Shown here one piece after another: positions 12,947-46,374 of a stretch of 64,000 nt of DNA; the stretch's first letter is position 1; the number at the start of each line of letters is the position of its first letter. The notes beneath the pieces are model-generated. The model saw only the letters and a program-made list of their open reading frames with translations. It was not told where the DNA came from and made no database searches. Location of the stretch: positions 21,129 through 85,128 of the forward strand of contig JAEWUV010000006.1 in assembly GCA_023396915.1 (NCBI GenBank), given 5' to 3'. The position numbers and the translations under genes were made by a program. This DNA comes from Candidatus Parcubacteria bacterium (lineage in GTDB: Bacteria > Patescibacteriota > Microgenomatia > UBA12405).

Positions 12947-14164
12947 ATGAAAGGGACTGTTATTTTTGGAATTACTGGGGGAATTGCTGCGTTTAAATCA
13001 ATAGAGTTGGTTAAGGAACTTAAAAACGAGGGATTGGATGTGCATGTAGTTATGACGAAACACGCGACAGAGATGATTTCACCTAAAGAATTTAAGTTGG
13101 TTTCGGGGAATTTGGTTATCACAAAACTGTTTGGGAAAGATTTTGATTATAAAAAAATTTTGGAAAATAAAGATGTTAAACATATTTCTTTGGCAGAAAA
13201 GGCTAATGTTATGGTTATCTGTCCGGCAACGGCTAATATTATTTCAAAATTAGCCAATGGAATTGCGGATGATTATTTGACAACTACGGCATTAGCGGTA
13301 ACTTCCCCTATTATTATTTGTCCAGCGATGAATGTTAATATGTGGAACAACCCGATAGTACAGGAAAATTTGGAAAAATTAAGAAAAAGGAATTTCTATA
13401 TAGTGGAACCTGAAAAAGGGATGTTAGCCTGTGGCTATGAAGGAATGGGAAGATTGGCTGAGATTAAAAAAGTAAAACAAGAAGTTTTGAATTGTCTTAA
13501 TCAAAAAAAATCTTTGAAGGGTAAAAAAGTTATCGTAACGGCGGGTGGAACTGTGGAAAAAATTGATGATGTGAGAGTAATTACAAACAGGAGTTCTGGA
13601 AAAATGGGGGTGGCTATTGCTGAAGAGTGCTTTTTGAGAGGTGCAGAAGTTTTATTGTTGCGGGCGAAAAATTCTGTTGCGCCACGTTATTGTATTAATG
13701 AAAAAACTTTTACAACAGCTGATGGACTGTTGAAAATGGTTGAGTCAAATGTAAAAAAATATGATTATTTTTATCATGCGGCGGCAGTGTCGGATTTTAA
13801 ACCGGAAGTTCAAATAAAAGGTAAATTATCCAGTAAGAAAACGGTAATAATAAAATTAAAGCCTCAAGTAAAAATTCTGGATAGAATTAAAGAATTTAAT
13901 CCGTCTATACGTTTGATTGCGTTTAAGGCAGAGTGTATATCAGATCAAGGAAAGCTTGGTAATGTTGCTTTTAAAAGACTTAAAGAATCTAATTCTGATG
14001 TAATTATTGCCAATGATGTGGGTAAAAGAAGTAGAGGTTTTGAGGTTGATACTAATGAAGTAATGATTATTTTTGCAGACGGGGAGAAAGTATTCGTACC
14101 ATTGTCTGATAAGCGAAAAGTTGCCCAACAAATTGTTGAGTCTGTTTCTAAAAAATTAATTTAA
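12947..14164 (+). CDS. coaBC: bifunctional phosphopantothenoylcysteine decarboxylase / phosphopantothenate-cysteine ligase
   Basis: N-terminal flavoprotein domain (GITGGIAAFKS, PAMNVNMW). C-terminal CoaB domain (GGTVEKIDDVRVITNRSSGKMG, KLKPQVKIL). Confidence 0.85.
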   Translation: MKGTVIFGITGGIAAFKSIELVKELKNEGLDVHVVMTKHATEMISPKEFKLVSGNLVITKLFGKDFDYKKILENKDVKHISLAEKANVMVICPATANIISKLANGIADDYLTTTALAVTSPIIICPAMNVNMWNNPIVQENLEKLRKRNFYIVEPEKGMLACGYEGMGRLAEIKKVKQEVLNCLNQKKSLKGKKVIVTAGGTVEKIDDVRVITNRSSGKMGVAIAEECFLRGAEVLLLRAKNSVAPRYCINEKTFTTADGLLKMVESNVKKYDYFYHAAAVSDFKPEVQIKGKLSSKKTVIIKLKPQVKILDRIKEFNPSIRLIAFKAECISDQGKLGNVAFKRLKESNSDVIIANDVGKRSRGFEVDTNEVMIIFADGEKVFVPLSDKRKVAQQIVESVSKKLI

Positions 14165-14647
14165 AATTTTTTGGAGTTTTAATTTTAATTCTTTTTCTCC
14201 ATCAGTATTGTTGATTATTTGTTTGTAATTTATTTTTGGTTTTTCAAATATGGTGGTCATTTTTTGGGAATATTTAATATCGAGAGGATATTCAAGTCTG
14301 GCCAAAAGACGTCTTTCTCGAACTGATTTGTTGGCTTTGATAAAAATAAATTGAGTATTTGGAATTTGGTTTAAAAAATGTTCTCGATATTTTTCTTTTA
14401 TAAAAGTTTGGGAAATAACAAGGTTTTTGTAATTTTTTGATAGTTTTTTAGTTTTCTGAGTAAGTCTTTTGAAAAAAAGATTTCTCATAGAGTCGTCGAT
14501 TGGAAGTTTTTTAAAAATTGCTTGTTTCATGATTTTTGGTAAACTGCAATCGCCATCATAATGGTAAAAGCCAAAATCACTTTGGAGTAAATCTCCGATA
14601 TAACTTTTTCCGGCACCAGGTAGACCGAAAAGAACAATAATTTTCAT
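14156..14647 (-). CDS. P-loop kinase (gluconokinase/shikimate-kinase-like fold)
   Basis: Walker A LFGLPGAGKSY at the N-terminus. Small 163-aa NMP-kinase-like size. Substrate not assignable. Confidence 0.5.
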   Translation of the reverse strand: MKIIVLFGLPGAGKSYIGDLLQSDFGFYHYDGDCSLPKIMKQAIFKKLPIDDSMRNLFFKRLTQKTKKLSKNYKNLVISQTFIKEKYREHFLNQIPNTQFIFIKANKSVRERRLLARLEYPLDIKYSQKMTTIFEKPKINYKQIINNTDGEKELKLKLQKILN

Positions 14648-14668
14648 GAAAGGAATTATACTTTATTT

Positions 14669-16498
14669 TTACAATCCTGATTGAACGAAATCTCCATAAG
14701 AACCTATATCTCCGATACTGGTGGCATCTTTAATTCCGATATAAATCCATTTGACAGGGATGATAGCAAATGAGTATTTATTTGATTCTATTTGACGATA
14801 ATAACCATGAGAATATATTTGTTTTAAGACTTTTGCTCCATTTTTGTAACTGGTATTTAAATTTGCTGTTATTTGTCGGCCAAATTCAGCCAGTTCTTCA
14901 ATTCCTTCACGTTTGAGTTCGGGAGATAATTTTCTCTCTTTTGGGGTTTCTGTGGTGGATTCTTGACCGGTTAGCCATTCAACAACTCTTTGTTTAGTAT
15001 GGTACATAGCTTTCACTTCTGTTTCGAGTTGTTTGTCTTCAGTAATTCCTTTTCGGACAACAAGGTCAACAGAGTGGCCGTGAACATATAACCTATCAAG
15101 TTTGAGATAACTAGCAAGGGCAATAGCATTTTGATAAATTGAATAAGCATCTGAACTTTTATATATTTTTATATAATGTGGAATTTCTCCTATTTTTTGT
15201 AATTCTGAAACTACTTCACATAATTCTTCGTGTCCAGTACCCATACTACTAAATCTCCCTTTAACGACATCTTTGAGATATGCTAATTTACTTTTGGTAT
15301 CTCCGGAAATTTCATAATGGGTTTTAACTCCAAATGATTTTAAGATATCTAATTGTTTTGTAATTTGGGGAACGATTTGTTGGTATAGCTCTGAAGGATA
15401 TTTTTGGAGATATTGAATTCCATTAATGATAATGTATTCATACTGGGAAGCTACTTGTTTTAGTTCAGCATCGGAGCAGTTAAACATAGGAGGGGTTTCG
15501 GCAGAGTTACCGTTTTGATCGAAATACTTAGTAGTGAAAATAATTCTATCTGTAATATCTTTTGATTCTATTATTTGACCATTAAACTCAATTTTTGTTT
15601 TAGCTGGTATTTTGATAGGATAATTTTTTCTGATTGGATGACTTGGGTTAACACTTTCATTATCAGTAATTAAGTGAACTTCCATACCTTTTTCTGAAAA
15701 ATGAAGGAATTTAACTGGTCTTTTGTAGGCACTGGCTTGGTCTGGAGAATTATATTCGGTATAAACTGTACAATTTTCTTCTCCAATGCCGGTTAGAAAG
15801 TCGGTTGATTGAGCTGAGGCCCCTCCAACTTTATTAAAATATTTTGGAAAAGTTGTTTCTACCCAATCAGCTAATTTTTTATCCGAAATGGAGGCTCGAC
15901 TTACACGATATTTAAATGTTCTTAGAATAAAACCAATTACTTGGGCTTTAGTTTTAGCCTCTGTGGAAACATTTGTTGAATCTTCAGGTTCATCTAAAAA
16001 TGTTTGAATTTCTTGTATGACTTGTTCTTTGGATGTTCCTGGTTCGTTGCTGGCATCTTCAATTGCTAAATTAATTGTTTCTTGAGAAAACTGACGGACA
16101 CAATCAACACAAGAATAAAAAGCGGTTAAAATTTTTTTGTGGGTTGGAGGTAAATCTTGGCTTTCGGTAAATAATTTGCCCATGTTTTCTATCATTCTAG
16201 CGAAGATGTGCGGTTGAGTAATTCCGGCTGTTTTTTTATCGACCAAAGCACTAGTATCTAAAAGTTCTTGAATAGATTGTGGTGATGGGAATCTTCCTCC
16301 TTGGTTTTTAAGAGCATCGGAGATTTTTTTATAAGTTTCTGGTCTAGCATCGAAGTGATTTGAATCATTCCCCAGAGTTTGTCCGTCAAGTTGAATACTA
16401 ACAGATGGCAATAATTCTAGCGATTGTCGTAGTTGGAGGACTTGAGATCTATTAATTTCACCTGTGATGAAATTGGTTTCTAACATTTCAGCAGGCAT
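14669..16498 (-). CDS. large uncharacterised protein whose C-terminal half resembles ADP-dependent sugar kinases (ADP-PFK/GK family)
   Basis: The C-terminal half (HYEISGD...SSMGTGHEEL...HGHSVDLVV...IGDIGSYGDF) resembles ADP-dependent kinase family motifs as recalled. The N-terminal ~300 aa have no recognisable domain. Weak, memory-based call. Confidence 0.3.
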   Translation of the reverse strand: MPAEMLETNFITGEINRSQVLQLRQSLELLPSVSIQLDGQTLGNDSNHFDARPETYKKISDALKNQGGRFPSPQSIQELLDTSALVDKKTAGITQPHIFARMIENMGKLFTESQDLPPTHKKILTAFYSCVDCVRQFSQETINLAIEDASNEPGTSKEQVIQEIQTFLDEPEDSTNVSTEAKTKAQVIGFILRTFKYRVSRASISDKKLADWVETTFPKYFNKVGGASAQSTDFLTGIGEENCTVYTEYNSPDQASAYKRPVKFLHFSEKGMEVHLITDNESVNPSHPIRKNYPIKIPAKTKIEFNGQIIESKDITDRIIFTTKYFDQNGNSAETPPMFNCSDAELKQVASQYEYIIINGIQYLQKYPSELYQQIVPQITKQLDILKSFGVKTHYEISGDTKSKLAYLKDVVKGRFSSMGTGHEELCEVVSELQKIGEIPHYIKIYKSSDAYSIYQNAIALASYLKLDRLYVHGHSVDLVVRKGITEDKQLETEVKAMYHTKQRVVEWLTGQESTTETPKERKLSPELKREGIEELAEFGRQITANLNTSYKNGAKVLKQIYSHGYYRQIESNKYSFAIIPVKWIYIGIKDATSIGDIGSYGDFVQSGL

Positions 16499-16560
16499 AA
16501 TATATTTTTTTTTATAAACCTGAAGTTGATTTTAGCACTTATAGGCTTATTTTTAAAGTT

Positions 16561-17055
16561 TTATCTTCTTGTAAAAAAGTGACTTAATATTTGTCTAATT
16601 TTAGATGATTGGTTTTGACTAATAATACGGAATGGTCCTGTATATTCAGTGATGTTTGTAAGTAAATTATCTGTTTGAACAATAATTAACTTAGTTTTAT
16701 TAAAATTAAATATATGAAAACAATATGATTTTTCTGTTGTTTTACTGCCTTCAAAAGCTTGTATAAGATTAGATTCTTCTATCGGTGGAGGGAGTTCTTC
16801 TATATTGTCGTCGGTAATTTTAATTACTGCATTTTTTTGGATTTGTTGGATTAATGTGTTTTCATCAGTTGTGTCATTGTGTTTTAGTGTAGATGTTATT
16901 AGTGGGTTTATATATATTTCTAGGTGGTCATTATATATGGCGCAAACACCTCCGTTAGTAATATAATTTGTTGCTTCGTTTGGTGTTAAAACAATATGTC
17001 CAGGAATATAATTTATTTGGTTTTCTGGTTGGGGATTGTCCTTAATAATTTCCAT
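16561..17055 (-). CDS. hypothetical protein (164 aa)
   Basis: Intact ORF with codon usage like its neighbours. No recognisable motifs. Confidence 0.4.
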   Translation of the reverse strand: MEIIKDNPQPENQINYIPGHIVLTPNEATNYITNGGVCAIYNDHLEIYINPLITSTLKHNDTTDENTLIQQIQKNAVIKITDDNIEELPPPIEESNLIQAFEGSKTTEKSYCFHIFNFNKTKLIIVQTDNLLTNITEYTGPFRIISQNQSSKIRQILSHFFTRR

Positions 17056-17233
17056 AAAAATGGCGAAATTCGTATTCGCTGGAGTATAACATATATATAA
17101 AATTTGGTTTTTTAGTGTTTTTGGGATGTGAAAAACGGTATTGGTAGTGTTTGATATACATTTCCTTAGTTTTATCCCCTACTATAATTTTTTGAAAAAA
17201 ATATACTGGTAAATACATTAGAAATAAATAATG

Positions 17234-17320
17234 AATTGGGTGTAATTCCCAAACTGTGCCGCAACGGTTAAAGTCCGATCTTATTTATTTTATTAGTTAG
17301 TCCGAGCCAGACTGTCTTTT
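17234..17320 (+). promoter_or_regulatory. cobalamin (B12) riboswitch-like aptamer in the nrdD 5' leader
   Basis: 17238-17278 GGGTGTAATTCCCAAACTGTGCCGCAACGGTTAAAGTCCGA matches the conserved cobalamin riboswitch core (GGTG.AAT.CC....CTG.CCGCAAC.GT.AA). 17299-17316 AGTCCGAGCCAGACTGTC is B12-box-like. Confidence 0.55.
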
Positions 17321-17336
17321 TGATTAATTTTTTAAG

Positions 17337-17360
17337 CCTGGTCAAGACCAGGTTTTTTTA
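17337..17360 (+). terminator. intrinsic terminator / riboswitch expression platform upstream of nrdD
   Basis: Hairpin CCTGGT-CAAG-ACCAGG followed by T7, ending 12 nt before the nrdD ATG. Confidence 0.6.
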
Positions 17361-17371
17361 TTAATAAAATT

Positions 17372-19708
17372 ATGTTCAAAAAAATAAAAAAAAGAGATGG
17401 AAGAGTGGTTAAATTTGATTCGAGTAAAATTAAATTGGCAATTCAAAAAGCAGGTAGGGTTACCGGTGAATTTGATGAGAGAATAGCTTTGAAATTGAGC
17501 GTAAAAGTATTAGATTTAGCTGAGGAAAAAATTACAAATAAAATCCCAAAAGTTGAAGAATTGCAGGATGTTGTGGAAGAGGTGTTGTTGGATTCGAAAT
17601 ATAAAAAAACAGCTAAAGAATATATTACCTATAGACAAGAAAGAACACAAATTAGGGAAGCTAAGGCAAATTTGATGCAGGTTTATAAAACAATTGCTTT
17701 GGCTCAGGCAGAAGAAGACAGTGATGTAAAACGGGGTAATGCTAATGTTGATGGCGATACGGCGATGGGAAAAATGTTACAATTTGGAGCTGAAGGAAGT
17801 AAAGAATTTGCCAAAAAATTTTTGATGAAACCAGAACATGCAGTGGCGCACGATAATGGGGATATTCATATTCATGATTTGGATTTTTGGGCCACAGGGA
17901 CGTTGACTTGTTGTCAATCTGACCCGTTAGTTTTATTTGAAAAAGGATTTAATACTGGTCATGGTTTTTTAAGAACACCAAATTCTATTGGTAGTTATGC
18001 GGCATTGGCGGCAATATTGTTACAAGCGAATCAAAATGAACAACATGGGGGGCAGTCTATTCCAAATTTTGATTATGCTATGGCGCCGGGGGTGTTGAAG
18101 ACTTTTAGAAAAAGTTTAGTGAGTAACATTTTAAAATCAATTGATTTTATTTTTAGTAAAAGTATTGAGAAACAAGTGATAAAACAAATTGTTGTTGAGA
18201 TTGAAGAAAAAAATAAATTAACTTTCCCAGAATTGTCCAAGGATTTTTTGAAAAGTTTAAAAAGTTTAGTAAAGAAAAAAATAAAAGAAGATTTAACGTT
18301 TAAACAATTAAATAAGATTGTTGAACTTTCGGTTAAAGATACTGAAGAACAAACAAATCAAGCGATGGAGGGATTGATTCACAACTTGAATACCATGCAT
18401 TCTCGGGCTGGAGCTCAGGTGCCATTTACTTCAATTAACTTTGGGACAGATACTACAGCTGAAGGGCGATTGGTTTCAAAAGCTTTTTTAAAGGCGACTA
18501 TGAATGGGTTAGGAAAAGGAGAAACGCCAATTTTCCCTATCTCAATTTTTAAAGTGAAAGAAGGAATAAATTATAATCCGACGGATCCTAATTATGATCT
18601 ATTTAAGCAATCAATGGAAGTTTCGAGTAAAAGATTGTTTCCTAATTTTGTGTTTGTGGACGCACCATTTAATTTAAAATATTACAAACCAGGTGATTAT
18701 CGAACAGAAATTGCCACCATGGGGTGTAGAACTCGGGTGTTTGGATCGGTATTTCCTGAAAGTGATGGAATTGCCACTAGGAGAGGAAATTGTTCGTTTA
18801 CGACAATAAATTTGCCTAGAATTGGGATAAAACATGGAGTTGATTGGGATGGGTTTTATAAAGAATTAGATGAAAAGATGGATTTAGTGGCTAACCAATT
18901 ATTGGAGAGATTTGAGTTTCAAGGTGAAAGGCGAGTAAGAAATTTTCCATTTTTGATGGGGCAAGGAAATTGGATGGGAAGTGAAAAATTAGGTCCTGAC
19001 GACAAATTAAAAGATGTAATTAAACATGGAACTTTGTCGATTGGTTTTATTGGTTTGGCAGAAACTTTAGTGGCAATGACCGGAAAACATCACGGAGAAT
19101 CGGTTGAGTCCCAAAAAAATGGTTTGGAAATAATTGGATTTATGAGAAAAAAATGTGATGAATTGATGAAGAGATATAATTTGAATTTTAGTTTGTTAGC
19201 AACTCCGGCCGAAGGTTTGTCAGGACGATTTACAAAAATGGATAAAAAAGAATTTGGGGTGATTAAGGGAGTAACTGATCGGGAATTCTATACTAACTCT
19301 TTTCATGTGCCGGTCTACTTCCCTCTTGGAGCTTTTGAAAAAATTGAAATTGAAGCGCCGTATCATGATTTGTGTAATGCTGGACATATTACTTATGTGG
19401 AGTTAGACGGTAATTTGAGTAATAATATTGATGCTTTTGAGGCGGTAGTACGAAAAATGAAAGAATCAGGAGTCGGTTATGGCAGTATTAACCACCCGGT
19501 TGATAGAGATCCGGTATGTGGTTTTAGTGGAATTATAGATGGTGATACTTGTCCGTCCTGTGGCAGAAAAGAGTTTAACAATGGAGTCGGTTTTGAAAGA
19601 TTGAGAAGAATTACCGGTTATTTGGTGGGGTCATTAGAGCGGTGGAATGATGCCAAAAAAGCTGAAGAAAAAGCCAGGGTTAAGCATTCCGTAAAATTTA
19701 AAAATTGA
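17372..19708 (+). CDS. nrdD: anaerobic ribonucleoside-triphosphate reductase (class III)
   Basis: N-terminal ATP-cone (KRDGRVVKFDSSKI). C-terminal Zn motif CPSCG. Glycyl radical motif RITGYLVGSL. Confidence 0.9.
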   Translation: MFKKIKKRDGRVVKFDSSKIKLAIQKAGRVTGEFDERIALKLSVKVLDLAEEKITNKIPKVEELQDVVEEVLLDSKYKKTAKEYITYRQERTQIREAKANLMQVYKTIALAQAEEDSDVKRGNANVDGDTAMGKMLQFGAEGSKEFAKKFLMKPEHAVAHDNGDIHIHDLDFWATGTLTCCQSDPLVLFEKGFNTGHGFLRTPNSIGSYAALAAILLQANQNEQHGGQSIPNFDYAMAPGVLKTFRKSLVSNILKSIDFIFSKSIEKQVIKQIVVEIEEKNKLTFPELSKDFLKSLKSLVKKKIKEDLTFKQLNKIVELSVKDTEEQTNQAMEGLIHNLNTMHSRAGAQVPFTSINFGTDTTAEGRLVSKAFLKATMNGLGKGETPIFPISIFKVKEGINYNPTDPNYDLFKQSMEVSSKRLFPNFVFVDAPFNLKYYKPGDYRTEIATMGCRTRVFGSVFPESDGIATRRGNCSFTTINLPRIGIKHGVDWDGFYKELDEKMDLVANQLLERFEFQGERRVRNFPFLMGQGNWMGSEKLGPDDKLKDVIKHGTLSIGFIGLAETLVAMTGKHHGESVESQKNGLEIIGFMRKKCDELMKRYNLNFSLLATPAEGLSGRFTKMDKKEFGVIKGVTDREFYTNSFHVPVYFPLGAFEKIEIEAPYHDLCNAGHITYVELDGNLSNNIDAFEAVVRKMKESGVGYGSINHPVDRDPVCGFSGIIDGDTCPSCGRKEFNNGVGFERLRRITGYLVGSLERWNDAKKAEEKARVKHSVKFKN

Positions 19709-25218: not shown

Positions 25219-25857
25219 ATGTTGTATATAATAGCGACACCGATTGGGAATCTAAAAGATATTACTGTAAGGGCAATGGAAACTTTGGAAAAGGTGGAAT
25301 ATTTGTTGTGTGAGGATACGAGAAACACAGGGTTGTTGTTGAAAAATTTAGGAATTAAAAATAAACCAAAATTAATTTCTTTTTATGATGAAGTGGAAGA
25401 TCAAAAAATTCCAGAAATAATAAATTTATTAAAAGAAAATAAAGAAGTTGGGTTGGTGACAGATGCTGGAACTCCAATAATCTCGGATCCGGGATGGAAA
25501 TTAATTAAAAAATGCCAAGGTTTAGGGATTAGTTATACGTCTTTGCCTGGAGCGTGTGCGGCAATTAATGGAGCAGTTTTGTCGGGCTTGCCGGTTGGAA
25601 GATTTTCTTTTTTGGGATTTTTGTCAAAAAAAGATGGTGAGAGAAAAAAGATTTTGGAAAAATATAAAAGTATCGATGGAGCAAAAATTGTTTATGAATC
25701 TCCTTTTCGGGTGGAAAAGTTAGTAGAGCAAATTAGACAAGTTTATGGAGGTGAAGTGCAAATAAAAATTATTCGGGAAATGACTAAAAAGTTTGAAGAA
25801 GTTTTGGAGACAACTAGTAAAAATATTAAGGGTGAAATAACGGTTATTTTTTGCTAA
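25219..25857 (+). CDS. rsmI: 16S rRNA (cytidine1402-2'-O)-methyltransferase
   Basis: Tetrapyrrole-methylase fold N-terminus YIIATPIGNLKDITVRA...CEDTRNTGLLL, typical of RsmI. Confidence 0.8.
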   Translation: MLYIIATPIGNLKDITVRAMETLEKVEYLLCEDTRNTGLLLKNLGIKNKPKLISFYDEVEDQKIPEIINLLKENKEVGLVTDAGTPIISDPGWKLIKKCQGLGISYTSLPGACAAINGAVLSGLPVGRFSFLGFLSKKDGERKKILEKYKSIDGAKIVYESPFRVEKLVEQIRQVYGGEVQIKIIREMTKKFEEVLETTSKNIKGEITVIFC

Positions 25858-28138
25858 TTTTTTTCTTTTCGGCTGCGGCAACAATTTCTCGGGTAGCATC
25901 AATAGCATCAGGGCTAACAGAAACACTGGTAGCCCCCCACTTAACTAATTTTTCGACTAGTTCGGGATAATTACTAGGCGCTTGACCGCAGATAGAACAC
26001 ATAATCCCGCGTTTTTTGGATTTGGTGACCAAGCGTTTTAGCGACCAAAGTACTGCCGGGTCCATTTCATTAAAATTTTTGGCAACTTCACCGTTGTCAC
26101 GATCAAGGCCGAGGGTAAGCATGGTTAAGTCGTTACTACCAATGGAAATTCCGTCGATACCAACGTCAATAAATTTGTCTAATAAAATAACATTGCTGGG
26201 GATTTCGGTCATCATTAAAAATTTAAATGACGGTGAACGGAGAAGTCCGGCATCGGTTACAAGTTTTTTGACTTGGGTTAGTTCTTCGACGGTACGAACA
26301 AAGGGAATCATGAGCCAAATATTTTTGTAACCATATTTATTTCTAACCATTTTTATGGCTTCAAGTTCCATGTTAAAAACATCAGGTGAACTTATGTAGC
26401 GGGAGGCACCACGAAAACCTAGCATGGGGTTTGATTCTTCAGGTTCATATAGTTTTCCCCATTTGAGGTGGCGGTATTCTTTGGTTTTGAAATCGGTAGC
26501 TCGGTAGACTACAGGTCTAGGTGAAAAGCTTTTACAAAATTTAAGTAAGTCTTTGGTAAGTTGATTAATAAATTGTTTTTGTTGATTGTGAGCAATTATG
26601 TATTTGGGATGCATCCCAATATTGGCCATCATAAATTCAGCTCGAAGTAGACCAATGCCATCAACGTTTCTTTTGGCTATAGTTTCAGCCAGGTCTGGCT
26701 CGCCTAAATTAACATAGACTTTGGTGGCGGTTTTGATTAGTTTGTTAGTAGATTGGTTGTTTGATTTATCAGCGCTAATGGTTGAACCTTGGGTTAAATC
26801 TCCTTTCCAAATTTGACCAGTAGCGCCATTTAGGGTGACAATGTCCCCTTCCTTGAGATCTTTGGTGGCAGTTTTGGTACCAACAACACAAGGAACTCCA
26901 AGTTCCCGGCTGACAATAGCGGCGTGGGATGTTTGACCACCTTTGTTGGTAATAATGCCATTAACTTTTTTCATAGCGGGAACAAAGTCGGGGGTGGTCA
27001 TATCGGTAACTAATATTTGGCCTTTTTGGGCTCGGGTAATTTCTTTTGGGTTATTGATAATAACTACAACTCCGGATGAAATTCCTGGACTGGCTGGTTC
27101 ACCAGTTAAATCGGGAGTTTGAGTAATGTTTTGTTTTTGTTGCTGATTTTCAATTTTTTCTTTACTGGATTCAATAGTAGTAATTGGTCTGGTTTGAACT
27201 ATGTAAAGTTGTCCCCTGTCAATGGCAAATTCAACGTCTTGGGGACGGCCGTAATGATTGTGGAGTTTTTGACCAATTTTGGCAATTTTTATGGCCATTT
27301 TATCATCAATTTTTTTTCTATTTTGTTTACTTTTGGGTACTTTTGTTTCTCCGGTTTCGTCATTATCTCGGACTAATTGAATATTTTGAGAAACATGATT
27401 TTCAGAAGTTATTTTCCATTCGTTTTTGTCGATAACGTATTGATCGGGAGTAATTTTACCTTGGACGATATATTCGCCAAGTCCCCAAATAGTTTCGACA
27501 ATAATCTCTTTTTTGTCGCCGGTTACCGGATTGGCAGTAAACATAATTCCAGAAATTTCAGAGTTAATTAGTTTTTGAACAGGAACAGCAACTCCAATTT
27601 TAAAATGATCATAATGTTTTTTGACTTGGTAAAAGATGGATCTAGAAGTAAAAAGACTGGACCAACAGTCACGAACCCTATCTATAACATTAACTTCTCC
27701 TATTACATTTAAAAAAGTGTCTCCTTGTCCAGCAAAAGAGGCATCGGCCGAATCTTCGGCGGTGGCAGAAGTTCTGACAGCAACTGGGACATGTTTTAAG
27801 CCACCGAAACCAGAAAGTTTTTTATAAGCTTTCATAATTTCTGTTGATAAAGCTTGACTGACTGGGGTTTTTTGAATTAAGTTTCTGATTTTTTTTGAGG
27901 CATATTGGAGTTGATCTGGTTGGTCGACGTCGGTAGTTTTTAAAATGTCTTTAATTTTTGGTTTAAGGTTATTTTCTTCAATAAATTTGAAATAAGCGTT
28001 TGAAGTGACTACAAAGCCGTTGGGAACTGGAATACCAAGTTGGTACATCTCACCTAAATTCCCTCCTTTACCACCAACTAAATTGACGTCATCTAAATCA
28101 ATTTCATGAAACCAAAGAACATTGGCAGATTTGTTCAT
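25844..28138 (-). CDS. ppsA: phosphoenolpyruvate synthase (pyruvate, water dikinase)
   Basis: N-terminal ATP-grasp motif GGKGGNLGEM. Phosphohistidine motif GGQTSHAAIVSRELGVPCVVG. C-terminal PEP-utilising domain. A PPDK-type enzyme is not fully excluded. Confidence 0.8.
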   Translation of the reverse strand: MNKSANVLWFHEIDLDDVNLVGGKGGNLGEMYQLGIPVPNGFVVTSNAYFKFIEENNLKPKIKDILKTTDVDQPDQLQYASKKIRNLIQKTPVSQALSTEIMKAYKKLSGFGGLKHVPVAVRTSATAEDSADASFAGQGDTFLNVIGEVNVIDRVRDCWSSLFTSRSIFYQVKKHYDHFKIGVAVPVQKLINSEISGIMFTANPVTGDKKEIIVETIWGLGEYIVQGKITPDQYVIDKNEWKITSENHVSQNIQLVRDNDETGETKVPKSKQNRKKIDDKMAIKIAKIGQKLHNHYGRPQDVEFAIDRGQLYIVQTRPITTIESSKEKIENQQQKQNITQTPDLTGEPASPGISSGVVVIINNPKEITRAQKGQILVTDMTTPDFVPAMKKVNGIITNKGGQTSHAAIVSRELGVPCVVGTKTATKDLKEGDIVTLNGATGQIWKGDLTQGSTISADKSNNQSTNKLIKTATKVYVNLGEPDLAETIAKRNVDGIGLLRAEFMMANIGMHPKYIIAHNQQKQFINQLTKDLLKFCKSFSPRPVVYRATDFKTKEYRHLKWGKLYEPEESNPMLGFRGASRYISSPDVFNMELEAIKMVRNKYGYKNIWLMIPFVRTVEELTQVKKLVTDAGLLRSPSFKFLMMTEIPSNVILLDKFIDVGIDGISIGSNDLTMLTLGLDRDNGEVAKNFNEMDPAVLWSLKRLVTKSKKRGIMCSICGQAPSNYPELVEKLVKWGATSVSVSPDAIDATREIVAAAEKKKISKK

Positions 28139-30887: not shown

Positions 30888-31973
30888 TTATTTGTACTCT
30901 TTGGCTATTTCTTCATTATTAAGAACACGAAGGGCGCCGTCGCGGAGAGCTTCAAGTTCTTTTTCACCAGGGATGACTGTAACACCGATATTTACTTGTT
31001 TTAAGTATTGAGAGATTCTTTCGGTTAAGAGTTTCCATTGAGCAATTCCACCGGTGAGAACTATTTGATCAATTGGTTCTCCTTCAAAATCTGGAATGAT
31101 ATGGCAAATATAACGGGCAAAACCGGTAATCATTTCATCGACAATATCCTTGGTATTTTTATCTAAACTGTCATAATTTACATTTAGATAATAAACATCT
31201 TTGGTATTAAGAAGTGAAAATAATCCACCTCCACCAAGGACTTTGTGTAAAATTTCTTCTTTGGTAAATTTATTTGAAAAACATAATTCAACTAATTGTT
31301 GCGAAGGTAAATAACCAGACCTTTCTGGAGTGAATGGTCCTTCACCGGGAATGGCATTAATAACATTAATGGTACGGCCTTTTTTGTGAGCGCCAAAAGA
31401 GGAGCCACCACCAAAGTGAGCTACAATGAGATTTAAGTCTTCATATTTTTTACCAATAGATGTGGCATATTCACGAGCAATAGCTTTTTGATTAAGGGCG
31501 TGCCAACCGGCGTAACGTTTGATTTCAGCGATACCTGTTAGTTTCTTTTTCGGTTCAATTTCGTCAGTGGTAACAGGGTCAACTATAAAAGCTTTGTCGG
31601 TGATGTTGAATTTTTCGGCTACTTTTAGGGCTAATGGAGCGCCTAAATTGGAAGCATGATTGGCTACTGGACGGTGATAAAGGTCATCCATCATTTTGTC
31701 ATTAATAGGAAAAGTTCCTGATGGGGTTGGGGGTAACATGCCACCACGGCCGACAACTGCATCGAGCTGGGTTATTTGGTTTTTGGTTAAAAGTTCTTCG
31801 ACAGCTTTGTATCTGTCTTCAAGTTGGTCCAAAACACTTCCAGGACGACTAAATTTTTTTTGAAATTCAAGATCTCTAGCGTGATCAATTTTTTCTTCAA
31901 AAATAGCGTTTTTATCTTCGTATAAAGCTAATTTGGTAGTAGTTGAACCGGGATTAATGATGAGTATTTTCAT
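30888..31973 (-). CDS. buk: butyrate kinase-like ASKHA-family acyl kinase
   Basis: N-terminus MKILIINPGSTTTKLALY matches the butyrate kinase consensus. ~360 aa. No ptb gene adjacent. Confidence 0.7.
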   Translation of the reverse strand: MKILIINPGSTTTKLALYEDKNAIFEEKIDHARDLEFQKKFSRPGSVLDQLEDRYKAVEELLTKNQITQLDAVVGRGGMLPPTPSGTFPINDKMMDDLYHRPVANHASNLGAPLALKVAEKFNITDKAFIVDPVTTDEIEPKKKLTGIAEIKRYAGWHALNQKAIAREYATSIGKKYEDLNLIVAHFGGGSSFGAHKKGRTINVINAIPGEGPFTPERSGYLPSQQLVELCFSNKFTKEEILHKVLGGGGLFSLLNTKDVYYLNVNYDSLDKNTKDIVDEMITGFARYICHIIPDFEGEPIDQIVLTGGIAQWKLLTERISQYLKQVNIGVTVIPGEKELEALRDGALRVLNNEEIAKEYK

Positions 31974-39150: not shown

Positions 39151-39885
39151 ATGTTTAAAGAAGGGTCTCCATCACATTCTTTGAATATTAATAAAGAAAA
39201 AAGTTTTAATTGGGACAGGGCTTTGGAGGCAGCAAAGTTTTTTGAACGCGACATTGATGTAGAGGATGTAGTTCCTAGATATGTTACTAATTGGGAGATT
39301 TTGGCTTCTTTTGTAAATTTGGCAATAGACTTAAAAGGAAAAGAATTTAAATACAACACTATAGTTTCTGATGATGGGGGTGGTCGAGTTATATCGATTT
39401 TTATAAAATATCTTTTTAGTATTAAGCGTATGGAGATTGAAAATAATGCTCCTAGTCCAATGGTTTATTTTGTTTCTCCACATAAACCGGATTTAGTGAA
39501 TAGTTTTGTTGATAATATTCATGATTCATTGGGAAAAGTCTTGGTGGTTACGGAATTAATTAGAAATGGGAAAGGGACGAGAGTTTTTGGTGATGCCTTG
39601 AAAAGATATAACGATGTAAGTTTTGATGTGGCCTCGGTTTCTAGTGTGAAGCCTGGAGTACCAGAACAACTAGAGTCTGAATATAACACTAAGGTGTTTG
39701 TAGGTGAGAGTCTAGGTTGGGGAGCGGGAGAGGTTTTTCATAAACAACCGTTTAATGCGGTTGGTGGTGTCCTTATAGAAGGGAAACCACATTTAAAAAA
39801 AAGAGATGATTTTGATTCCCCAGTTGTGGCTGCTGCTCGGAAGAATATTTTTACTTTAGCTGAGGAAATTTCGAAGTTAATTTAG
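39151..39885 (+). CDS. hypothetical protein, possibly phosphoribosyltransferase-like
   Basis: Weak PRTase-like motif VLVVTELIRNGKGT (hydrophobic run + acidic + G.T). Otherwise uncharacterised. Adjacent to the purine genes. Confidence 0.3.
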   Translation: MFKEGSPSHSLNINKEKSFNWDRALEAAKFFERDIDVEDVVPRYVTNWEILASFVNLAIDLKGKEFKYNTIVSDDGGGRVISIFIKYLFSIKRMEIENNAPSPMVYFVSPHKPDLVNSFVDNIHDSLGKVLVVTELIRNGKGTRVFGDALKRYNDVSFDVASVSSVKPGVPEQLESEYNTKVFVGESLGWGAGEVFHKQPFNAVGGVLIEGKPHLKKRDDFDSPVVAAARKNIFTLAEEISKLI

Positions 39886-40997
39886 GTAGTGATTTGGTCT
39901 AGACAATTATTTTTAACAGCTGATTTGATTTCCATAGCGACACGAGTACCGACACTTAAATGTTTTCCATAAAGATAGAAGTTGTAAGGAGTGGCAAAAA
40001 GTCCGGGTGATCCGGGCATTCTAGGTGAAACATCAATAACAACAATATCTTTTTGTGGAGGTCCGGGGACGATAATTGATTGAAGAGCAAAAGGACCAAT
40101 TACTCCGGGTGAATAAAGATCCTGACAGGCTTTGACAAAGCTTTCGCCTAAAATAAAAGCTTTTTCGAGCATTGATTCCAATACCGTGACAGCAATGTGG
40201 CCGGCTTCTTCATATTTAATTTCCATTTTTTTAAGAACTTCAGTTTGATAACTGACGGGAATACGAGAAAGACCTTCGAGATTGGTTTGGCGACGGGTAT
40301 CAGTGCCCATAAGCTCTAATCTTTTGCTAGTCGGTGAATAGAAATAATTAAAATTGGTATGAACTCCAGTGACAAATTCTTCGATTACAGATTTTTGTAA
40401 TTGTTCTTCGGTAAAGGCGCCTTGTTGAAGTAATTTATCAGTTTGATTTTTAAAATCTTGATAAGAATCGACCATAAAGAAAGCTCTTTCAAAACCACGG
40501 GCTTTTTCTAGAACTTTAACTAAACAAAGTCTGTCGATGTTTTTTGGGTCGGTGAATTGAATAGGAAAACGAATGCCGGCCGATTTTAGGATATCGTATT
40601 GGTTGGGTTTGACTCCCCTCTCTTCGGATTTGAGTAAAAATTTATTACCAAACATAGGAATTTTAAAGTCATTTTCAATAGCCTTGTAGTCGAAATTTAG
40701 GTAAACTTCAAAAGATCGATGAGGGACAAAAATGGTATTTTGATCAATTAATTGTTGTTGGATTTGAGGGTTAAGTAAATCAGAAAATTTGTCTAAAATT
40801 AGACAATTATCAACACAACCAATTTTTCCGTCGGTTTTGTAATATTTAGAATAAACAGCATCACGGCCCTTTTGGGCAATAACCAGTGTTTTGAAACCGA
40901 GTTTTTTGGCACCACTACAAACATCAAGAGCACTGTGTGAACCGAGAACGGCAATAGTAATTTTTGACGGGTCGTAAGTTTTAATTATATTCTCCAT
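39882..40997 (-). CDS. purP: PurP-family ATP-grasp protein (FAICAR synthetase paralog)
   Basis: Collinear with archaeal PurP (IAVLGSHSALDVCSGAKKLGF, VPHRSFEVYL, FGNKFLLKSE, NFNYFYSP, ELMGTDTRRQTN, PFALQSII). Paralog of the adjacent gene. Confidence 0.8.
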   Translation of the reverse strand: MENIIKTYDPSKITIAVLGSHSALDVCSGAKKLGFKTLVIAQKGRDAVYSKYYKTDGKIGCVDNCLILDKFSDLLNPQIQQQLIDQNTIFVPHRSFEVYLNFDYKAIENDFKIPMFGNKFLLKSEERGVKPNQYDILKSAGIRFPIQFTDPKNIDRLCLVKVLEKARGFERAFFMVDSYQDFKNQTDKLLQQGAFTEEQLQKSVIEEFVTGVHTNFNYFYSPTSKRLELMGTDTRRQTNLEGLSRIPVSYQTEVLKKMEIKYEEAGHIAVTVLESMLEKAFILGESFVKACQDLYSPGVIGPFALQSIIVPGPPQKDIVVIDVSPRMPGSPGLFATPYNFYLYGKHLSVGTRVAMEIKSAVKNNCLDQITT

Positions 40998-40998
40998 T

Positions 40999-42012
40999 TT
41001 AGTCTAAAATTAAATTTAATTTATTGGATTTTTTGGCTAAATTAATTTCTCGGGCGATACGACGACCAGTGCTCATGGGTTGACCATAAACCAAATCGCT
41101 ATAAGGAGATCCGTTGATATGGATGTTGGTACCGGCAACAATGCGGCAAGAAATTTCGATAATATGGAATTTTAGGTCGGGAGTAATAATAGTTTCCAAA
41201 CAAAAAGGTCCGTAAATACCTTTTTTGTCAATTAATTTTTGAGAAGCGGCAACTAGGCGTTCACCCATTTCGTAAGCTTCGGGCATCATGGATTCCCGTA
41301 AAACAACAGGGGTATTCCCTACTACGGTATAACTAGGATTAATATCAAGTTCTTGTTGGTTTTTTGAAGGGATTCTACCAAGTGAATCAACGTTGGTTTC
41401 ATAACGGCGATCCATACCAAGAATTTCAACTTGTTTGGTTAAAGGAGAATAAAAATAATGGATATAAAGATTGACACCGATGACATATTGTTGAATAGTA
41501 TATTTTTTGCCTTTGGGGATATTTTTAAGTTTTTTGGCTAAATCTTTTTTAGAACTGGCATAAAAATAACCACTACCACCATCAGCTCCGTGGGTTTTGA
41601 CGATAACAGGATATTCAATTTTATTAATGTCAGAGTATTCTTTTGGAGTATTAATATTGGCTTGTTTAAGCCAAAGGGATTGTTTATCTCTGTCGGCTTC
41701 CCAATCCAGAACGGCTTTGTTGCCAAAATAAGGTAAAGACATTTCTTTGTTTTTTTCTAGACCTAAGTGAGCCACAAAGCTACCATGAGGAATGACAATA
41801 GCATTTTCTTTTCGGAGTTCTGGTTCTACTTTAGAAAAATCTGACCAGTCGGGAATGGTAATAATTTTGTCGATAAAAGGGAAACGCTTATAAAAAGAAA
41901 CTCTGTCTGGGGTAGAAACCAGAATTGTGTTGAACTTCTCGTCTTTGGCGCCCTTAAGGATTTGAAGAGCAGAATGACTAGCTAGAGTAACGATACTATA
42001 TTTTTTATTCAC
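40999..42012 (-). CDS. purP: 5-formaminoimidazole-4-carboxamide ribonucleotide (FAICAR) synthetase, archaeal type
   Basis: Strong collinear similarity to M. jannaschii PurP as recalled (IVTLASHSALQILKGAKDEKF, IPHGSFVAHLGLE, YFGNKAVLDWEADR, YPVIVK, YIHYFYSPL, ILGMDRRYETNVD, GPFCLETI). Confidence 0.85.
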   Translation of the reverse strand: MNKKYSIVTLASHSALQILKGAKDEKFNTILVSTPDRVSFYKRFPFIDKIITIPDWSDFSKVEPELRKENAIVIPHGSFVAHLGLEKNKEMSLPYFGNKAVLDWEADRDKQSLWLKQANINTPKEYSDINKIEYPVIVKTHGADGGSGYFYASSKKDLAKKLKNIPKGKKYTIQQYVIGVNLYIHYFYSPLTKQVEILGMDRRYETNVDSLGRIPSKNQQELDINPSYTVVGNTPVVLRESMMPEAYEMGERLVAASQKLIDKKGIYGPFCLETIITPDLKFHIIEISCRIVAGTNIHINGSPYSDLVYGQPMSTGRRIAREINLAKKSNKLNLILD

Positions 42013-42060: not shown

Positions 42061-43467
42061 TTAAAGTTTCTCAACTCTGATGACCTGTTTCCTTTCCGGT
42101 CCGGTACCTAAAAGGACAGGTTGACAACCGGTTTTTTCCAAAAGAAATTTTAAATATTCTTTGGCCTCGTCAGGAATTTCGTCATAATTTTTGGCAGCAC
42201 TGATTTTATCAGTGTTCCATGAAGGAAGCTCTTGATATTGTGGTTCTACTAGGTCTGCCCACCATTGGTAAGGACGATAGTCAACTTTTTCTCCGGTGCT
42301 TTTTAATTTATATTCGGTGCAGAGTTTAATGTTAGTATTTGGTTTAATGGCATCCATGTGACTAATAGCAATTTCATTGGCATGGCTGACTTTGGCATAA
42401 AAGGCAGTAGCTACCAAGTCGGGAAAAGCAACATCTCGGGGTCTGCCGGTGGTTCCACCAAATTCATGGAAAGTGTCCCGGTACCAATTGGCCAAATCTT
42501 CGGGCATTTGGGTGGGTAATTTTCTGGCACCAACACTGGAACAGTAAAGTTTACTGATTCCAATTCGGTGTTCAATTTCCATATGATTAACCAAACCTTC
42601 GGTCGAGGCATCAATTCCGATAAAACTTGGGTCAGAGGCGGTTATATCAGGTTTGACTCCATATACCGGATGGATACCAACACCCTGAGACATTTCAAAA
42701 AGGAAAGCATACTTGTTCGGACTTTCCCAGGCTTGTTTGACAAAATCATAGACATCTTCGATATAAGGTAAAAGGAACTCACGATATTTTTTAAGGTTAG
42801 AAATAAAATCTTGTTTACTTCCAACTAGTTGTTTCTCTCCGCCTTTGGTGTCGGAAAAAATAGGAATTAAGATTTCTGACATTTTAAGGTCAAGGCCGGA
42901 TATAATTTGAGAAAAATAGTCGTAATGTTTTTCAAAAGCCCCAAAATTTCCTTCAACTAAATCTTTGACATAAAGTTCTTGGCGAAGGGTTCTGTCGGCA
43001 TAAGCGGGACTAATCCCTTGCCCGGTAGCTCCTTTGCCAATATCTTTGGTACTTTTAAGGGCGAATTCAAAAGCCTGATGAGTGGGTAGAGCTAAGGTGG
43101 CGGTAGCGCTGACTTTAATAGTTGAAGGAATTTCTCCTCCGGATAATTCTTTGACCTTGCCTATTTCATAGGTTAATCCCTGAGGGTTGATAACTTTGCT
43201 GTTGCCTAAAATGGCATAAACATTTTTATTAAAAACTCCGCTGGGAAGTTGGTGAAGATTAATAGAAATTCTTTGTCCATTATTCTGGTCTATTTCTATC
43301 CGGTGTCCAGCATTGGCTCCACCGCTAACACTGTAATCGACGCAAGTAAGGCCTTTTCCAACATACTCTTCGGCTATTTTATCGGCGAATTTTGCTTTAC
43401 CCTCATCTCCCCATTGGGCGCCTTGGATGGCGGTACTGTTTGGTCTGGTTTTAATCATATAACTCAT
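42061..43467 (-). CDS. purA: adenylosuccinate synthetase (divergent)
   Basis: PurA motifs GAQWGDEGKAK, GGANAGH, GATGQGISPAY, GGTTGRPRD, LGTGPER. The P-loop reads GKAK instead of GKGK. 468 aa. Confidence 0.75.
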   Translation of the reverse strand: MSYMIKTRPNSTAIQGAQWGDEGKAKFADKIAEEYVGKGLTCVDYSVSGGANAGHRIEIDQNNGQRISINLHQLPSGVFNKNVYAILGNSKVINPQGLTYEIGKVKELSGGEIPSTIKVSATATLALPTHQAFEFALKSTKDIGKGATGQGISPAYADRTLRQELYVKDLVEGNFGAFEKHYDYFSQIISGLDLKMSEILIPIFSDTKGGEKQLVGSKQDFISNLKKYREFLLPYIEDVYDFVKQAWESPNKYAFLFEMSQGVGIHPVYGVKPDITASDPSFIGIDASTEGLVNHMEIEHRIGISKLYCSSVGARKLPTQMPEDLANWYRDTFHEFGGTTGRPRDVAFPDLVATAFYAKVSHANEIAISHMDAIKPNTNIKLCTEYKLKSTGEKVDYRPYQWWADLVEPQYQELPSWNTDKISAAKNYDEIPDEAKEYLKFLLEKTGCQPVLLGTGPERKQVIRVEKL

Positions 43468-45762: not shown

Positions 45763-46374
45763 TTATTCTAAAATTCCATCTAAATTGACATCGTAGATGA
45801 TTTCTTCAGATATTAGTCGATAGTTAATGATTTCGTTTTTGTTAAACCAAATTGGAATTTCTTTTTCAGCTTCTTCAACAGATCCAGAAGAATGAATAAT
45901 GTTTCTGACGGCTCTTTTGTCAGCGTTAGCGGCAGTGTAGGAATCAATGGTGAAATCACCGCGAATTGTTCCTGGTGCAGAACTTAATGGTTCGGTAGAT
46001 CCGGTAATTTTTCTAACGATGGCGACTGCTCCCATTCCCTGCCAAACCATAGCGATGACCGGACCACTACTCATAAAATCCATAAGTTGTGATCTAACTT
46101 CTTCGGCAAATGCTTCAGGGGTATCGGCAGGCATGGGTAAGCCTTTTTCTTTGTAAGATTCAAAAGTTTTGTTACCAGTTTTAGTGGCCCATTCGGGGTC
46201 AATAGAATAATGATTTTTAACTGTTTCTTTGTTCGGAGTAAGCATTTTTAAAGCGACTAATTTTAATCCGCAGGTTTCGTATCTTTTAATAACTTCTCCA
46301 ATTAGACCTCTTTGAACTCCGTCGGGTTTAACAATAACTAAGGTTTGTTCTTGTTTACTATCAAAGTTTTTCAT
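45763..46374 (-). CDS. ndk: nucleoside diphosphate kinase (with C-terminal extension)
   Basis: Motifs TLVIVKPDGVQRG and NIIHSSGSVEEAEKEI (NxxHGSD-like). ~50 extra C-terminal residues. Confidence 0.85.
   Translation of the reverse strand: MKNFDSKQEQTLVIVKPDGVQRGLIGEVIKRYETCGLKLVALKMLTPNKETVKNHYSIDPEWATKTGNKTFESYKEKGLPMPADTPEAFAEEVRSQLMDFMSSGPVIAMVWQGMGAVAIVRKITGSTEPLSSAPGTIRGDFTIDSYTAANADKRAVRNIIHSSGSVEEAEKEIPIWFNKNEIINYRLISEEIIYDVNLDGILE

Follow-up and report, generated by a model that had tools for sequence, protein, structure and literature searches.

A divergent putative ADP-dependent sugar kinase and a coaBC-linked, gluconate-kinase-like P-loop protein at one locus of a Microgenomates-type bacterium

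Three consecutive minus-strand genes lie between coaBC and the leader of nrdDG in a 64,000-nucleotide stretch of DNA (hereafter the window; positions 21,129 to 85,128 of contig JAEWUV010000006.1) from a Candidatus Parcubacteria bacterium, and an initial annotation of the window had left them largely unexplained. The best overall explanation of these genes, which on balance we consider probable, is that the largest open reading frame (ORF), a 609-aa ORF that we call K609, encodes a divergent kinase of the ADP_PFK_GK family, that its 163-aa neighbor is a P-loop kinase linked to coaBC, and that the remaining 164-aa ORF is an orphan. Two functional proposals go with this explanation: the P-loop protein would be a fourth, GntK-fold type of pantothenate kinase, and K609 would be an ADP-dependent phosphofructokinase (PFK) that closes a gap in an archaeal-style modified Embden-Meyerhof pathway, with phosphoenolpyruvate (PEP) synthase recycling the AMP. 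That at least one of the two is correct is a real possibility, if somewhat short of an even prospect.

The locus

The three ORFs were found where the initial annotation had placed them. They are listed here with the gene on which the first of them converges.

12947-14164, plus strand: coaBC, phosphopantothenoylcysteine synthetase/decarboxylase (TIGR00521, 390.8 bits vs. a cutoff of 219.7)
14156-14164: 9-bp overlap of coaBC with the P-loop kinase gene, the two genes converging at their 3' ends
14156-14647, minus strand: the 163-aa P-loop kinase ORF
14669-16498, minus strand: the 609-aa ORF, K609
16561-17055, minus strand: the 164-aa orphan ORF

On one flank of the three ORFs, pflB, a focA-like gene, pflA and coaBC all occupy the plus strand; on the other flank, an AdoCbl-II riboswitch is followed by nrdD and nrdG.

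Family, fold and extent of K609

By sequence and profile comparison, K609 is a single, complete and very divergent kinase of the ADP_PFK_GK family, i.e., of the ADP-dependent sugar kinases in the ribokinase superfamily. It is composed of a small lid domain, a Rossmann-like large domain and a clade-specific N-terminal extension of about 100 residues. The likeness to ADP-dependent kinases that the initial annotation had perceived in its C-terminal half is real: Pfam PF04587 (ADP_PFK_GK) matches residues 344-583 with 29.0 bits vs. a gathering threshold of 27. This margin is small, and several nearer relatives (P0018-P0036) have no Pfam match whatsoever. The best match in the PDB is 6c8z (E = 7e-8 with the single sequence, 5e-11 with a profile), and a profile search of the PDB with the K609 family matched both ADP-dependent PFKs (ADP-PFKs) and ADP-dependent glucokinases (ADP-GKs). 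Scores against the equivalog models were 35.5 bits for ADP-specific phosphofructokinase (TIGR02045; cutoff 408.1) and 27.3 bits for ADP-specific glucokinase (NF010641; cutoff 554).

Does K609 combine a novel N-terminal half with a kinase half, as the initial annotation had it? That description, in which the first ~300 residues resembled nothing, had to be abandoned, as the N-terminal part has the same fold. TIGR02045 aligns to residues 123-481, and the ADP-PFK of Pyrococcus horikoshii (1u2x) aligns to residues 116-310, including LPPTHKKILTAFYSCVDCV vs. MIPEHLSIYTAYNANIDAI. When a profile of 13 K609-family members was compared by hhalign with a profile of 16 canonical-length ADP-PFK/GK-like relatives, residues 103-609 were aligned to template positions 5-483 (of 494) over 465 columns, with a probability of 100 and an E value of 1e-43. 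With the canonical fold accommodated in its entirety between residues 103 and 609, K609 is no fusion of this sort.

Structural comparison gave the same picture. The top 22 Foldseek matches of an AlphaFold2 (AF2) model of K609 were all ADP-GK or ADP-PFK structures, with about 500 aligned columns each. This model was built from a 10-sequence alignment and has a predicted local distance difference test (pLDDT) score of 51.5, and it was used for fold-level ranking rather than residue geometry. The suspected ribokinase fold is thus borne out, and K609 falls in the archaeal-type, ADP-dependent GK/PFK branch of that superfamily. The protein divides as follows.

14672-16192, minus strand: K609 residues 103-609, the complete small and large domains of the ADP-PFK/GK fold (hhalign, Foldseek and 1u2x alignment)
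16193-16498, minus strand: K609 residues 1-102, the clade-specific N-terminal extension (outside the hhalign match; AF2 pLDDT below 50)

The extension is kept within the clade, with L42, G43, H48, D50, Q77, E78 and D81 invariant in an alignment of the family (A1). Relatives at ~40% identity carry HEAT repeats ahead of it.

Predicted active site of K609

Residues of K609 were mapped with the aid of the structural study of AncMsPFK bound to fructose 6-phosphate (F6P; PMC7948494) and of K609 alignments to ADP-PFK/GK sequences and profiles. Conservation was assessed in a second alignment (A2) of 20 K609-family sequences with identities down to 24%. Invariant in A2 are D132, G225, G226, N292, R318, P337, G390, E396, G399, E425, H473, D478, K502 and G596, and D597 is conserved in at least 90% of the sequences. 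The motifs of K609 quoted in the initial annotation are all present (HYE, GHEE, H473 and SIGD); H473 corresponds to H360 of AncMsPFK, and the others appear in the list.

16103-16105, minus strand: D132, equivalent to the sugar-binding D36 of AncMsPFK (AFYSCVD vs. AYNSNID); invariant in A2, role from PMC7948494
15821-15826, minus strand: G225-G226, equivalent to G114/G115, the GG of the GGQAG sugar-binding loop (Gln is Ala here); invariant
15623-15631, minus strand: R290-K-N292, equivalent to K179-x-N181 of AncMsPFK; N292 invariant, position 290 always K or R
15545-15547, minus strand: R318, equivalent to R206 of AncMsPFK; invariant in A2
15311-15319, minus strand: H394-Y-E396, the HXE motif (Mg-ADP binding); E396 invariant in A2, H394 in A1
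15224-15235, minus strand: G422-H-E-E425, the NXXE/DXXE motif; Glu kept and invariant
14708-14719, minus strand: S594-I-G596-D597, the GXGD motif (catalytic-base Asp), with Ser for the first Gly (SXGD)

In PFK-type and bifunctional enzymes, the residues equivalent to K179 and N181 of AncMsPFK hold the phosphate of F6P; ADP-GKs carry His in place of N181, and R206, which contacts the beta-phosphate of ADP, is conserved throughout the family (PMC7948494). The Glu that is specific for glucose (the E90 equivalent) aligns to about A202 of K609, where there is no Glu; the alignment of this loop is moderately reliable. The motif TK(I/V)NYPIE of the K609 clade, which includes the K/R-x-N pair, parallels the canonical TK(I/V)NWIFE. 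At the start of NXXE, the sub-clade of K609 has Gly and the HEAT-fused clade has Asn.

Compared with characterized members of the ADP-PFK/GK family (AncMsPFK, 6C8Z/6XIO; P. horikoshii PFK, 1U2X; T. litoralis GK, 1GC5; M. jannaschii PFK/GK, 5OD2), K609 shares the whole two-domain fold, the Asp of GXGD, HXE, the Glu of NXXE, the beta-phosphate Arg, the GG loop, the sugar-binding Asp and the K/R-x-N pair. It differs in that it is 14-20% identical to them, carries the additional module of ~100 residues at its N-terminus (with HEAT repeats in relatives), reads GHEE for NXXE and SXGD for GXGD, does not conserve the equivalents of N32, N34, Q116 and R212, scores far below both archaeal equivalog cutoffs and occupies a separate deep clade in a rough tree. 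The hosts differ as well: archaea and eukaryotes for the known family, a CPR-type bacterium (candidate phyla radiation) for K609.

We infer that K609 is a catalytically active kinase, because the residues that are invariant down to 24% identity are precisely the catalytic and nucleotide- and sugar-binding ones. The same fact makes it very improbable that K609 has descended from a kinase into a non-catalytic or regulatory role exerted through protein-protein contacts, a notion to which the HEAT-fused relatives, the large HEAT protein adjoining them and the loss of the first NXXE residue in one sub-clade might otherwise lend some appeal.

Distribution and genomic context of K609

K609 has few relatives. 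A word-indexed search found 10 K609 clusters in 5.8 billion proteins, and an exhaustive profile search of 1.84 billion representatives returned 191 sequences at E ≤ 1e-3 and 34 at E ≤ 1e-30. Among GTDB species representatives there was a single K609 locus (L007), on a contig of 48% GC from a metagenome-assembled genome whose label reads Gammaproteobacteria; the genome of the window was not among the results. In a rough neighbor-joining tree, the K609 clade stood as a separate deep clade, apart from the canonical clade of 450-506-aa proteins.

The same tree and the metagenome search also contained many other long-branch clades of 530-790-aa, ADP_PFK_GK-like proteins (P0034-P0164), some of which pass the Pfam threshold and some of which do not. 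Their C-terminal halves, which end in ...GAGD(I/T)xS..., match ADP_PFK_GK, and some match N-terminally too. None of these clades was traced to a characterized enzyme.

The neighborhood of K609 changes with distance. The P-loop gene lies directly downstream of the K609 homologue in the 82% relative (21-nt gap) and in the 68% relative (8-nt gap), and all loci with this adjacency (L001-L003, L012, L013 and L029/L030; at least 68% identity) also keep coaBC. At 32-41% identity (L004-L007 and L014-L022), none of 11 distant loci has the P-loop gene beside the K609 homologue. In five loci, a HEAT protein of 900-990 aa adjoins HEAT-fused homologues of K609:

L007, 2509-5229: HEAT protein
L014, 9936-end: HEAT protein
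L015, 3654-6614: HEAT protein
L016, 4078-end: HEAT protein
L020, 1-1104: HEAT protein

This protein has an N-terminal HExxH-like motif (LLLHECAHDKQ), and its Pfam matches are to HEAT_2 only; a tblastn search found no such HEAT/HExxH protein of ~900 aa encoded in the window. In L021 (179-2911) and L022 (1246-4080), where the homologues are 32-34% identical to K609, the genes directly upstream on the same strand encode an ATP-dependent phosphoenolpyruvate carboxykinase (PEPCK; 677 bits) and a class I/II aminotransferase, a central-carbon context.

Possible function of K609

As a working enzyme, K609 would move the terminal phosphate of ADP onto a hydroxyl of a phosphorylated sugar. The donor is assumed to be ADP by analogy with the rest of the family. 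With regard to the acceptor, a phosphorylated sugar is the predicted class, and we tentatively put F6P forward as the leading candidate, because the K/R-x-N pair is kept and the glucose-specific Glu is absent.

A kinase of this type would supply the PFK step, which is usually missing in Microgenomates-type genomes. No PF04587 protein was found in ~1000 CPR genomes, in which PFK and hexokinase are rare (Jaffe 2020), and the Microgenomates order UBA1400 lacks GK and PFK and has glucose-6-phosphate isomerase (GPI) and fructose-bisphosphate aldolase (FBA; PMC7143001). The window also encodes a possible partner:

25844-28138, minus strand: PEP synthase (pyruvate, water dikinase; 926 bits)

This enzyme, 9 kb from K609, could recycle the AMP left by ADP-dependent phosphorylation; a homologue of it is also found near the 68% relative of K609 in L001. 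Thermococcus runs PEP synthase in reverse and so recycles the AMP made by its ADP-dependent kinases.

Several observations weigh against reading K609 as an F6P kinase of glycolysis. The protein departs from canonical ADP-PFKs at N32 (Y128), Q116 (Ala), R212 (K324 or Glu) and N34 (C130; Asn in the HEAT clade), as well as in the Gly that opens NXXE in its sub-clade, and its ~35 bits fall far short of the ADP-PFK equivalog cutoff of 408. The poor AF2 model supports fold-level statements only. In the scan of the 38 other ORFs of the window, no FBA, phosphoglucose isomerase (PGI) or PFK was found. The arguments from gaps in glycolysis, like those from coenzyme A (CoA) synthesis below, rest on the literature about relatives rather than on this genome. 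The family is very rare, so K609 is a candidate gap-filler for a few lineages and not for CPR bacteria at large. Finally, the HEAT-fused homologues lie amid glycosyltransferase, epimerase and nucleotidyltransferase genes and beside the ~900-aa HEAT protein, a setting that would also suit other sugars or a role in a protein complex.

This last point leads to the alternative that survives best, in which K609 is not a glycolytic PFK. Instead, it would phosphorylate another sugar, free or already phosphorylated, on the way to nucleotide sugars or envelope glycans, by analogy with the ribokinase-fold heptose-7-phosphate kinase HldE/RfaE, or it would be a glucokinase. We consider this somewhat unlikely. 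HEAT-fused homologues are flanked by family 2 glycosyltransferases (GT2; L004 and L019), NAD-epimerases (L014 and L019), a sugar nucleotidyltransferase (L014) and genes for polytopic membrane proteins, and the F6P-contacting N32, N34, Q116 and R212 are unconserved, all of which fits a glycan kinase. However, genes for the cell envelope abound in CPR genomes, and no consistent context emerges (PEPCK and an aminotransferase in L021/L022, nrdD and coaBC in the window). A glucokinase would fill another gap, as this activity is also absent in related Microgenomates (PMC7143001). Plain glucose is disfavored, however, by the phosphate-binding K/R-x-N pair that K609 keeps, and the Glu and His of the GK type are missing. 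The contexts of the K609 homologues do not settle the substrate, and the glycan-precursor reading stays alive beside that of an F6P kinase.

Sequence and structure of the P-loop kinase

The initial annotation had described the neighbor of K609 as a protein with a plain Walker A motif. The motif is there (GLPGAGKS), but the protein is not plain: it is specifically gluconate-kinase-like, and modeling gives it, within the P-loop kinases, the fold of the gluconate kinases GntK and IdnK. The family that it matches best is TIGR01313 (GntK/IdnK), at 52.9 bits vs. a cutoff of 113.75, and 1knq was matched in the PDB by a profile of the family at 6.6e-12. The AF2 model (pLDDT 91.9) retrieved gluconate kinases as its top 10 Foldseek matches, with template modeling (TM) scores of 0.75-0.87. 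JGI names the protein gluconate kinase, and homologues carry the names of Patescibacteria or Microgenomates. The motifs are located as follows.

14603-14626, minus strand: Walker A
14549-14557, minus strand: DGD
14483-14485, minus strand: R55
14393-14410, minus strand: QTFIKE
14297-14311, minus strand: lid arginines

In common with GntK/IdnK (E. coli GntK, 1KNQ/1KO5), the family keeps Walker A, DGD, the Arg after the substrate helix, K..YR and the lid arginines. It differs from two GntK structures in reading (S/D)LP..M for LHP..N, SQTFIK for CSALK and (E/D)YP for GHF, and these changes in the substrate helix and the lid are mostly toward more hydrophobic residues. It also differs in company, as the gene is partnered by coaBC, with or without panC, rather than by genes of gluconate catabolism. 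All 34 aligned family members match TIGR01313 (best E = 2.2e-17), and all lie far below its cutoff, at about half or less.

A precedent exists for the recruitment of a small kinase of this fold to another hydroxy-acid in an essential pathway: the Desulfovibrio-type homoserine kinase (NF040667), which is shikimate-kinase/GntK-like. This model is weakly matched by 30 of the 34 members (best E = 5.7e-7; cutoff 197 bits). The context of the P-loop gene is CoA synthesis, in contrast to threonine synthesis for the homoserine kinase.

The P-loop gene and coaBC

The P-loop gene converges on and overlaps coaBC in all eight lineages inspected (the window, L001/L012 and L023-L028), with a 3' overlap of 9 bp in the window and 8-33 bp in the others. 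Its homologues at 40-52% identity, on six unrelated contigs, are beside coaBC in every case, and none of these six loci has a K609 homologue beside the P-loop gene. On the upstream side, the neighbor varies: K609, panC, UDG, a hypothetical protein, a Y-family polymerase, a glycosyltransferase-like protein or a SemiSWEET transporter. Because the adjacency to coaBC is kept across lineages while the other neighbors change, it appears that the P-loop kinase belongs with coaBC. In one of the eight lineages (L023), a genuine panC (318 bits; cutoff 212.75) shares the strand of the P-loop gene and stops 1 nt short of it on the upstream side.

Two observations nearby deserve mention in their own right. 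In the 68% relative (L001/L012), the region 3' of coaBC (L001 9580-11010) encodes a UCP014422-family protein and a stand-alone ATP-grasp ligase similar to the corresponding domains of cyanophycin synthetase and GshAB (265 bits, far short of the cutoff). In addition, a 29%-identical outlier of the small-kinase superfamily (P0206; JGI 3300075153) is located between cysE/cysK-like genes and an aminotransferase gene rather than beside coaBC, a setting that suggests further substrate switches in this small-kinase fold.

Possible function of the P-loop kinase

From its sequence and its neighborhood, we infer that the P-loop protein serves the CoA pathway as a kinase of a hydroxy-acid. The most plausible reading, which we advance with caution as a possibility, is that it is a non-orthologous pantothenate kinase. 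It would then convert pantothenate to 4'-phosphopantothenate, the substrate of CoaBC, and occupy the predicted slot between PanC and CoaBC that it would share with pantothenate kinases of types I (CoaA), II and III (CoaX) and with the archaeal pantoate kinase. Unlike these enzymes, it has no detectable sequence relationship to any known family of the step: searches of Pfam, NCBIfam and the PDB gave no match to CoaA, type II pantothenate kinase, CoaX or archaeal pantoate kinase. It thus lies outside every known pantothenate kinase family, and the likeness would be a functional analogy only. No pantothenate kinase, CoaD or CoaE was seen in the window (38 other ORFs scanned) or in flanks of up to 10 kb, and a literature search found no paper that connects pantothenate kinase with CPR bacteria.

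Three facts count against this assignment. The link to coaBC is convergent rather than operonic, and overlapping ends alone can preserve an adjacency; the SemiSWEET sugar transporter directly upstream of the P-loop gene in L028 favors a sugar-acid kinase; and co-transcription of K609 with the P-loop gene is possible in the window lineage, where 21 nt separate the two on one strand.

Each of the first two facts could be accommodated by a true gluconokinase that delivers 6-phosphogluconate to the pentose-phosphate pathway, with the adjacency to coaBC as a frozen accident of overlapping ends. The best sequence and structure matches, the JGI name and the transporter of L028 all favor such an enzyme. 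Nonetheless, we regard it as unlikely: none of the 34 members exceeds about half of the TIGR01313 cutoff, the positions conserved in the substrate helix and lid of GntK differ, no gluconate permease, gnd or edd/eda gene was found in the eight flanks, and the adjacency to coaBC outlasts that of every other neighbor, with panC upstream in L023.

The third fact bears on the proposal, made in the initial annotation, that K609 and its neighbor form a phosphorylation pair. In its explicit form, the two genes would be one operon for a single sugar route, with, for example, a GntK-like enzyme acting on gluconate or a sugar acid and an ADP-PFK-like enzyme acting on the downstream sugar phosphate. The shared strand, the short gaps (21 nt in the window, 8 nt in the 68% relative, 21 nt in the 82% relative) and the carbohydrate-kinase-like character of both proteins speak for it. 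Still, the case for a pair is weak and a joint route improbable, as the two genes adjoin only in relatives that are at least 68% identical, and these close relatives keep the synteny with coaBC and nrdD as well; distant K609 loci have no P-loop gene, and distant P-loop loci have no K609 (0 of 6). Moreover, on our reading of the sequence, the 21-nt spacer contains a perfect TATAAT about 8 nt before the ATG of the P-loop gene, so this gene may have its own expression.

There is a further set of candidates within the CoA pathway itself. Bacterial CoaB uses CTP, and the P-loop protein might be a CMP kinase that recycles the resulting CMP, or else a substitute for dephospho-CoA kinase. The link with coaBC speaks for these activities too. 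Weak matches to dephospho-CoA kinase (TIGR00152) and archaeal CMP kinase (TIGR02173) were found for 10 of the 34 members each, the cyanobacterial PanC-Cmk fusion might suggest a CMP kinase, and NCBIfam includes a bifunctional PanC/(d)CMP kinase (NF010004). However, the family matches GntK better than either kinase by 10 orders of magnitude, the structure is nearest to GntK (TM 0.8-0.87 vs. 0.6-0.78 for nucleoside monophosphate kinases and CoaE), and the conserved Arg after DGD would fit a carboxylate substrate, by analogy with shikimate kinase. Both activities are accordingly poor prospects next to the pantothenate kinase that we prefer.

The orphan gene and the makeup of the locus

The 164-aa ORF, which the initial annotation had called an orphan, is a true one, with no match in Pfam, NCBIfam, PDB sequences, PHROGs or PADLOC. 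Only two clusters of homologues, at 99% and 58% identity, were present in 5.8e9 proteins. Conservation of the protein at 58% identity suggests that it is a real gene. It is absent upstream of the 82% relative of K609, and a TetR gene and an ABC-2 permease gene take its place in the 68% relative. It is thus a recent, lineage-specific gene and not a conserved part of either kinase unit. The three-gene arrangement, for which the initial annotation had proposed a check in related genomes, does not recur: because the orphan is absent or replaced in the 82% and 68% relatives, the three genes are no conserved unit, and the stretch is a lineage-specific juxtaposition.

A role in defense was considered and rejected; K609 and the orphan had no PADLOC match, and the P-loop kinase had only a generic VakA match of 28.8 bits.

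Other features of the window

The scan of the 38 other ORFs identified PEP synthase, pyruvate formate-lyase and its activase, butyrate kinase, two PurP genes, PurA and nucleoside-diphosphate kinase. The features that follow were recorded along with it.

17221-17291, plus strand: AdoCbl-II riboswitch (46.1 bits vs. 36.5), ahead of nrdD
17334-17355, plus strand: terminator-like hairpin, just before the start of nrdD at 17372
30888-31973, minus strand: butyrate kinase (398 bits, above cutoff)
39882-40997 and 40999-42012, both minus strand: two tandem archaeal-type PurP paralogues (DUF1246 and DUF1297), adjoining purA at 42061-43467
45763-46374, minus strand: nucleoside-diphosphate kinase, 203 aa, with its NDK domain matched in two stretches
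1-64000: GC skew above zero in each 2-kb bin (0.05-0.38), independent of the coding strand (G 21.1% vs. C 13.6% on the plus strand)

The riboswitch and the hairpin together suggest B12-dependent repression of the anaerobic class III ribonucleotide reductase. Butyrate kinase, with pyruvate formate-lyase, its activase and the formate channel, points to a fermentative lifestyle. Both PurP paralogues (formate-dependent FAICAR synthetase) score below the equivalog cutoffs. The split match of the nucleoside-diphosphate kinase implies an insertion or extension relative to the norm of ~140 aa. Lastly, the GC skew of the window matches the one-directional cumulative skew of complete UBA1400 genomes of the Microgenomates, for which unidirectional replication has been proposed (PMC7143001). 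Taken with the small size of the scaffold and with the Patescibacteria and Microgenomates names of P-loop homologues, the skew makes it probable that the window comes from a Microgenomates-type CPR bacterium.

Implications

K609 scores barely above the Pfam threshold and its nearest relatives score below it, such that standard annotation would overlook enzymes of this kind. The many deep, uncharacterized clades of 530-790-aa proteins likewise indicate that the substrate range of ADP_PFK_GK is probably wider than the three known activities. Genomes of the CPR/Patescibacteria are known for gaps in central pathways. For CoA biosynthesis, the coupling of a GntK-fold kinase with coaBC provides a concrete, testable candidate for a kinase step in these reduced genomes. 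In glycolysis, the missing PFK and hexokinase are usually explained by a pentose-phosphate bypass; if K609 is active on F6P, at least some Microgenomates-type lineages would have a complete, archaeal-style upper glycolysis.

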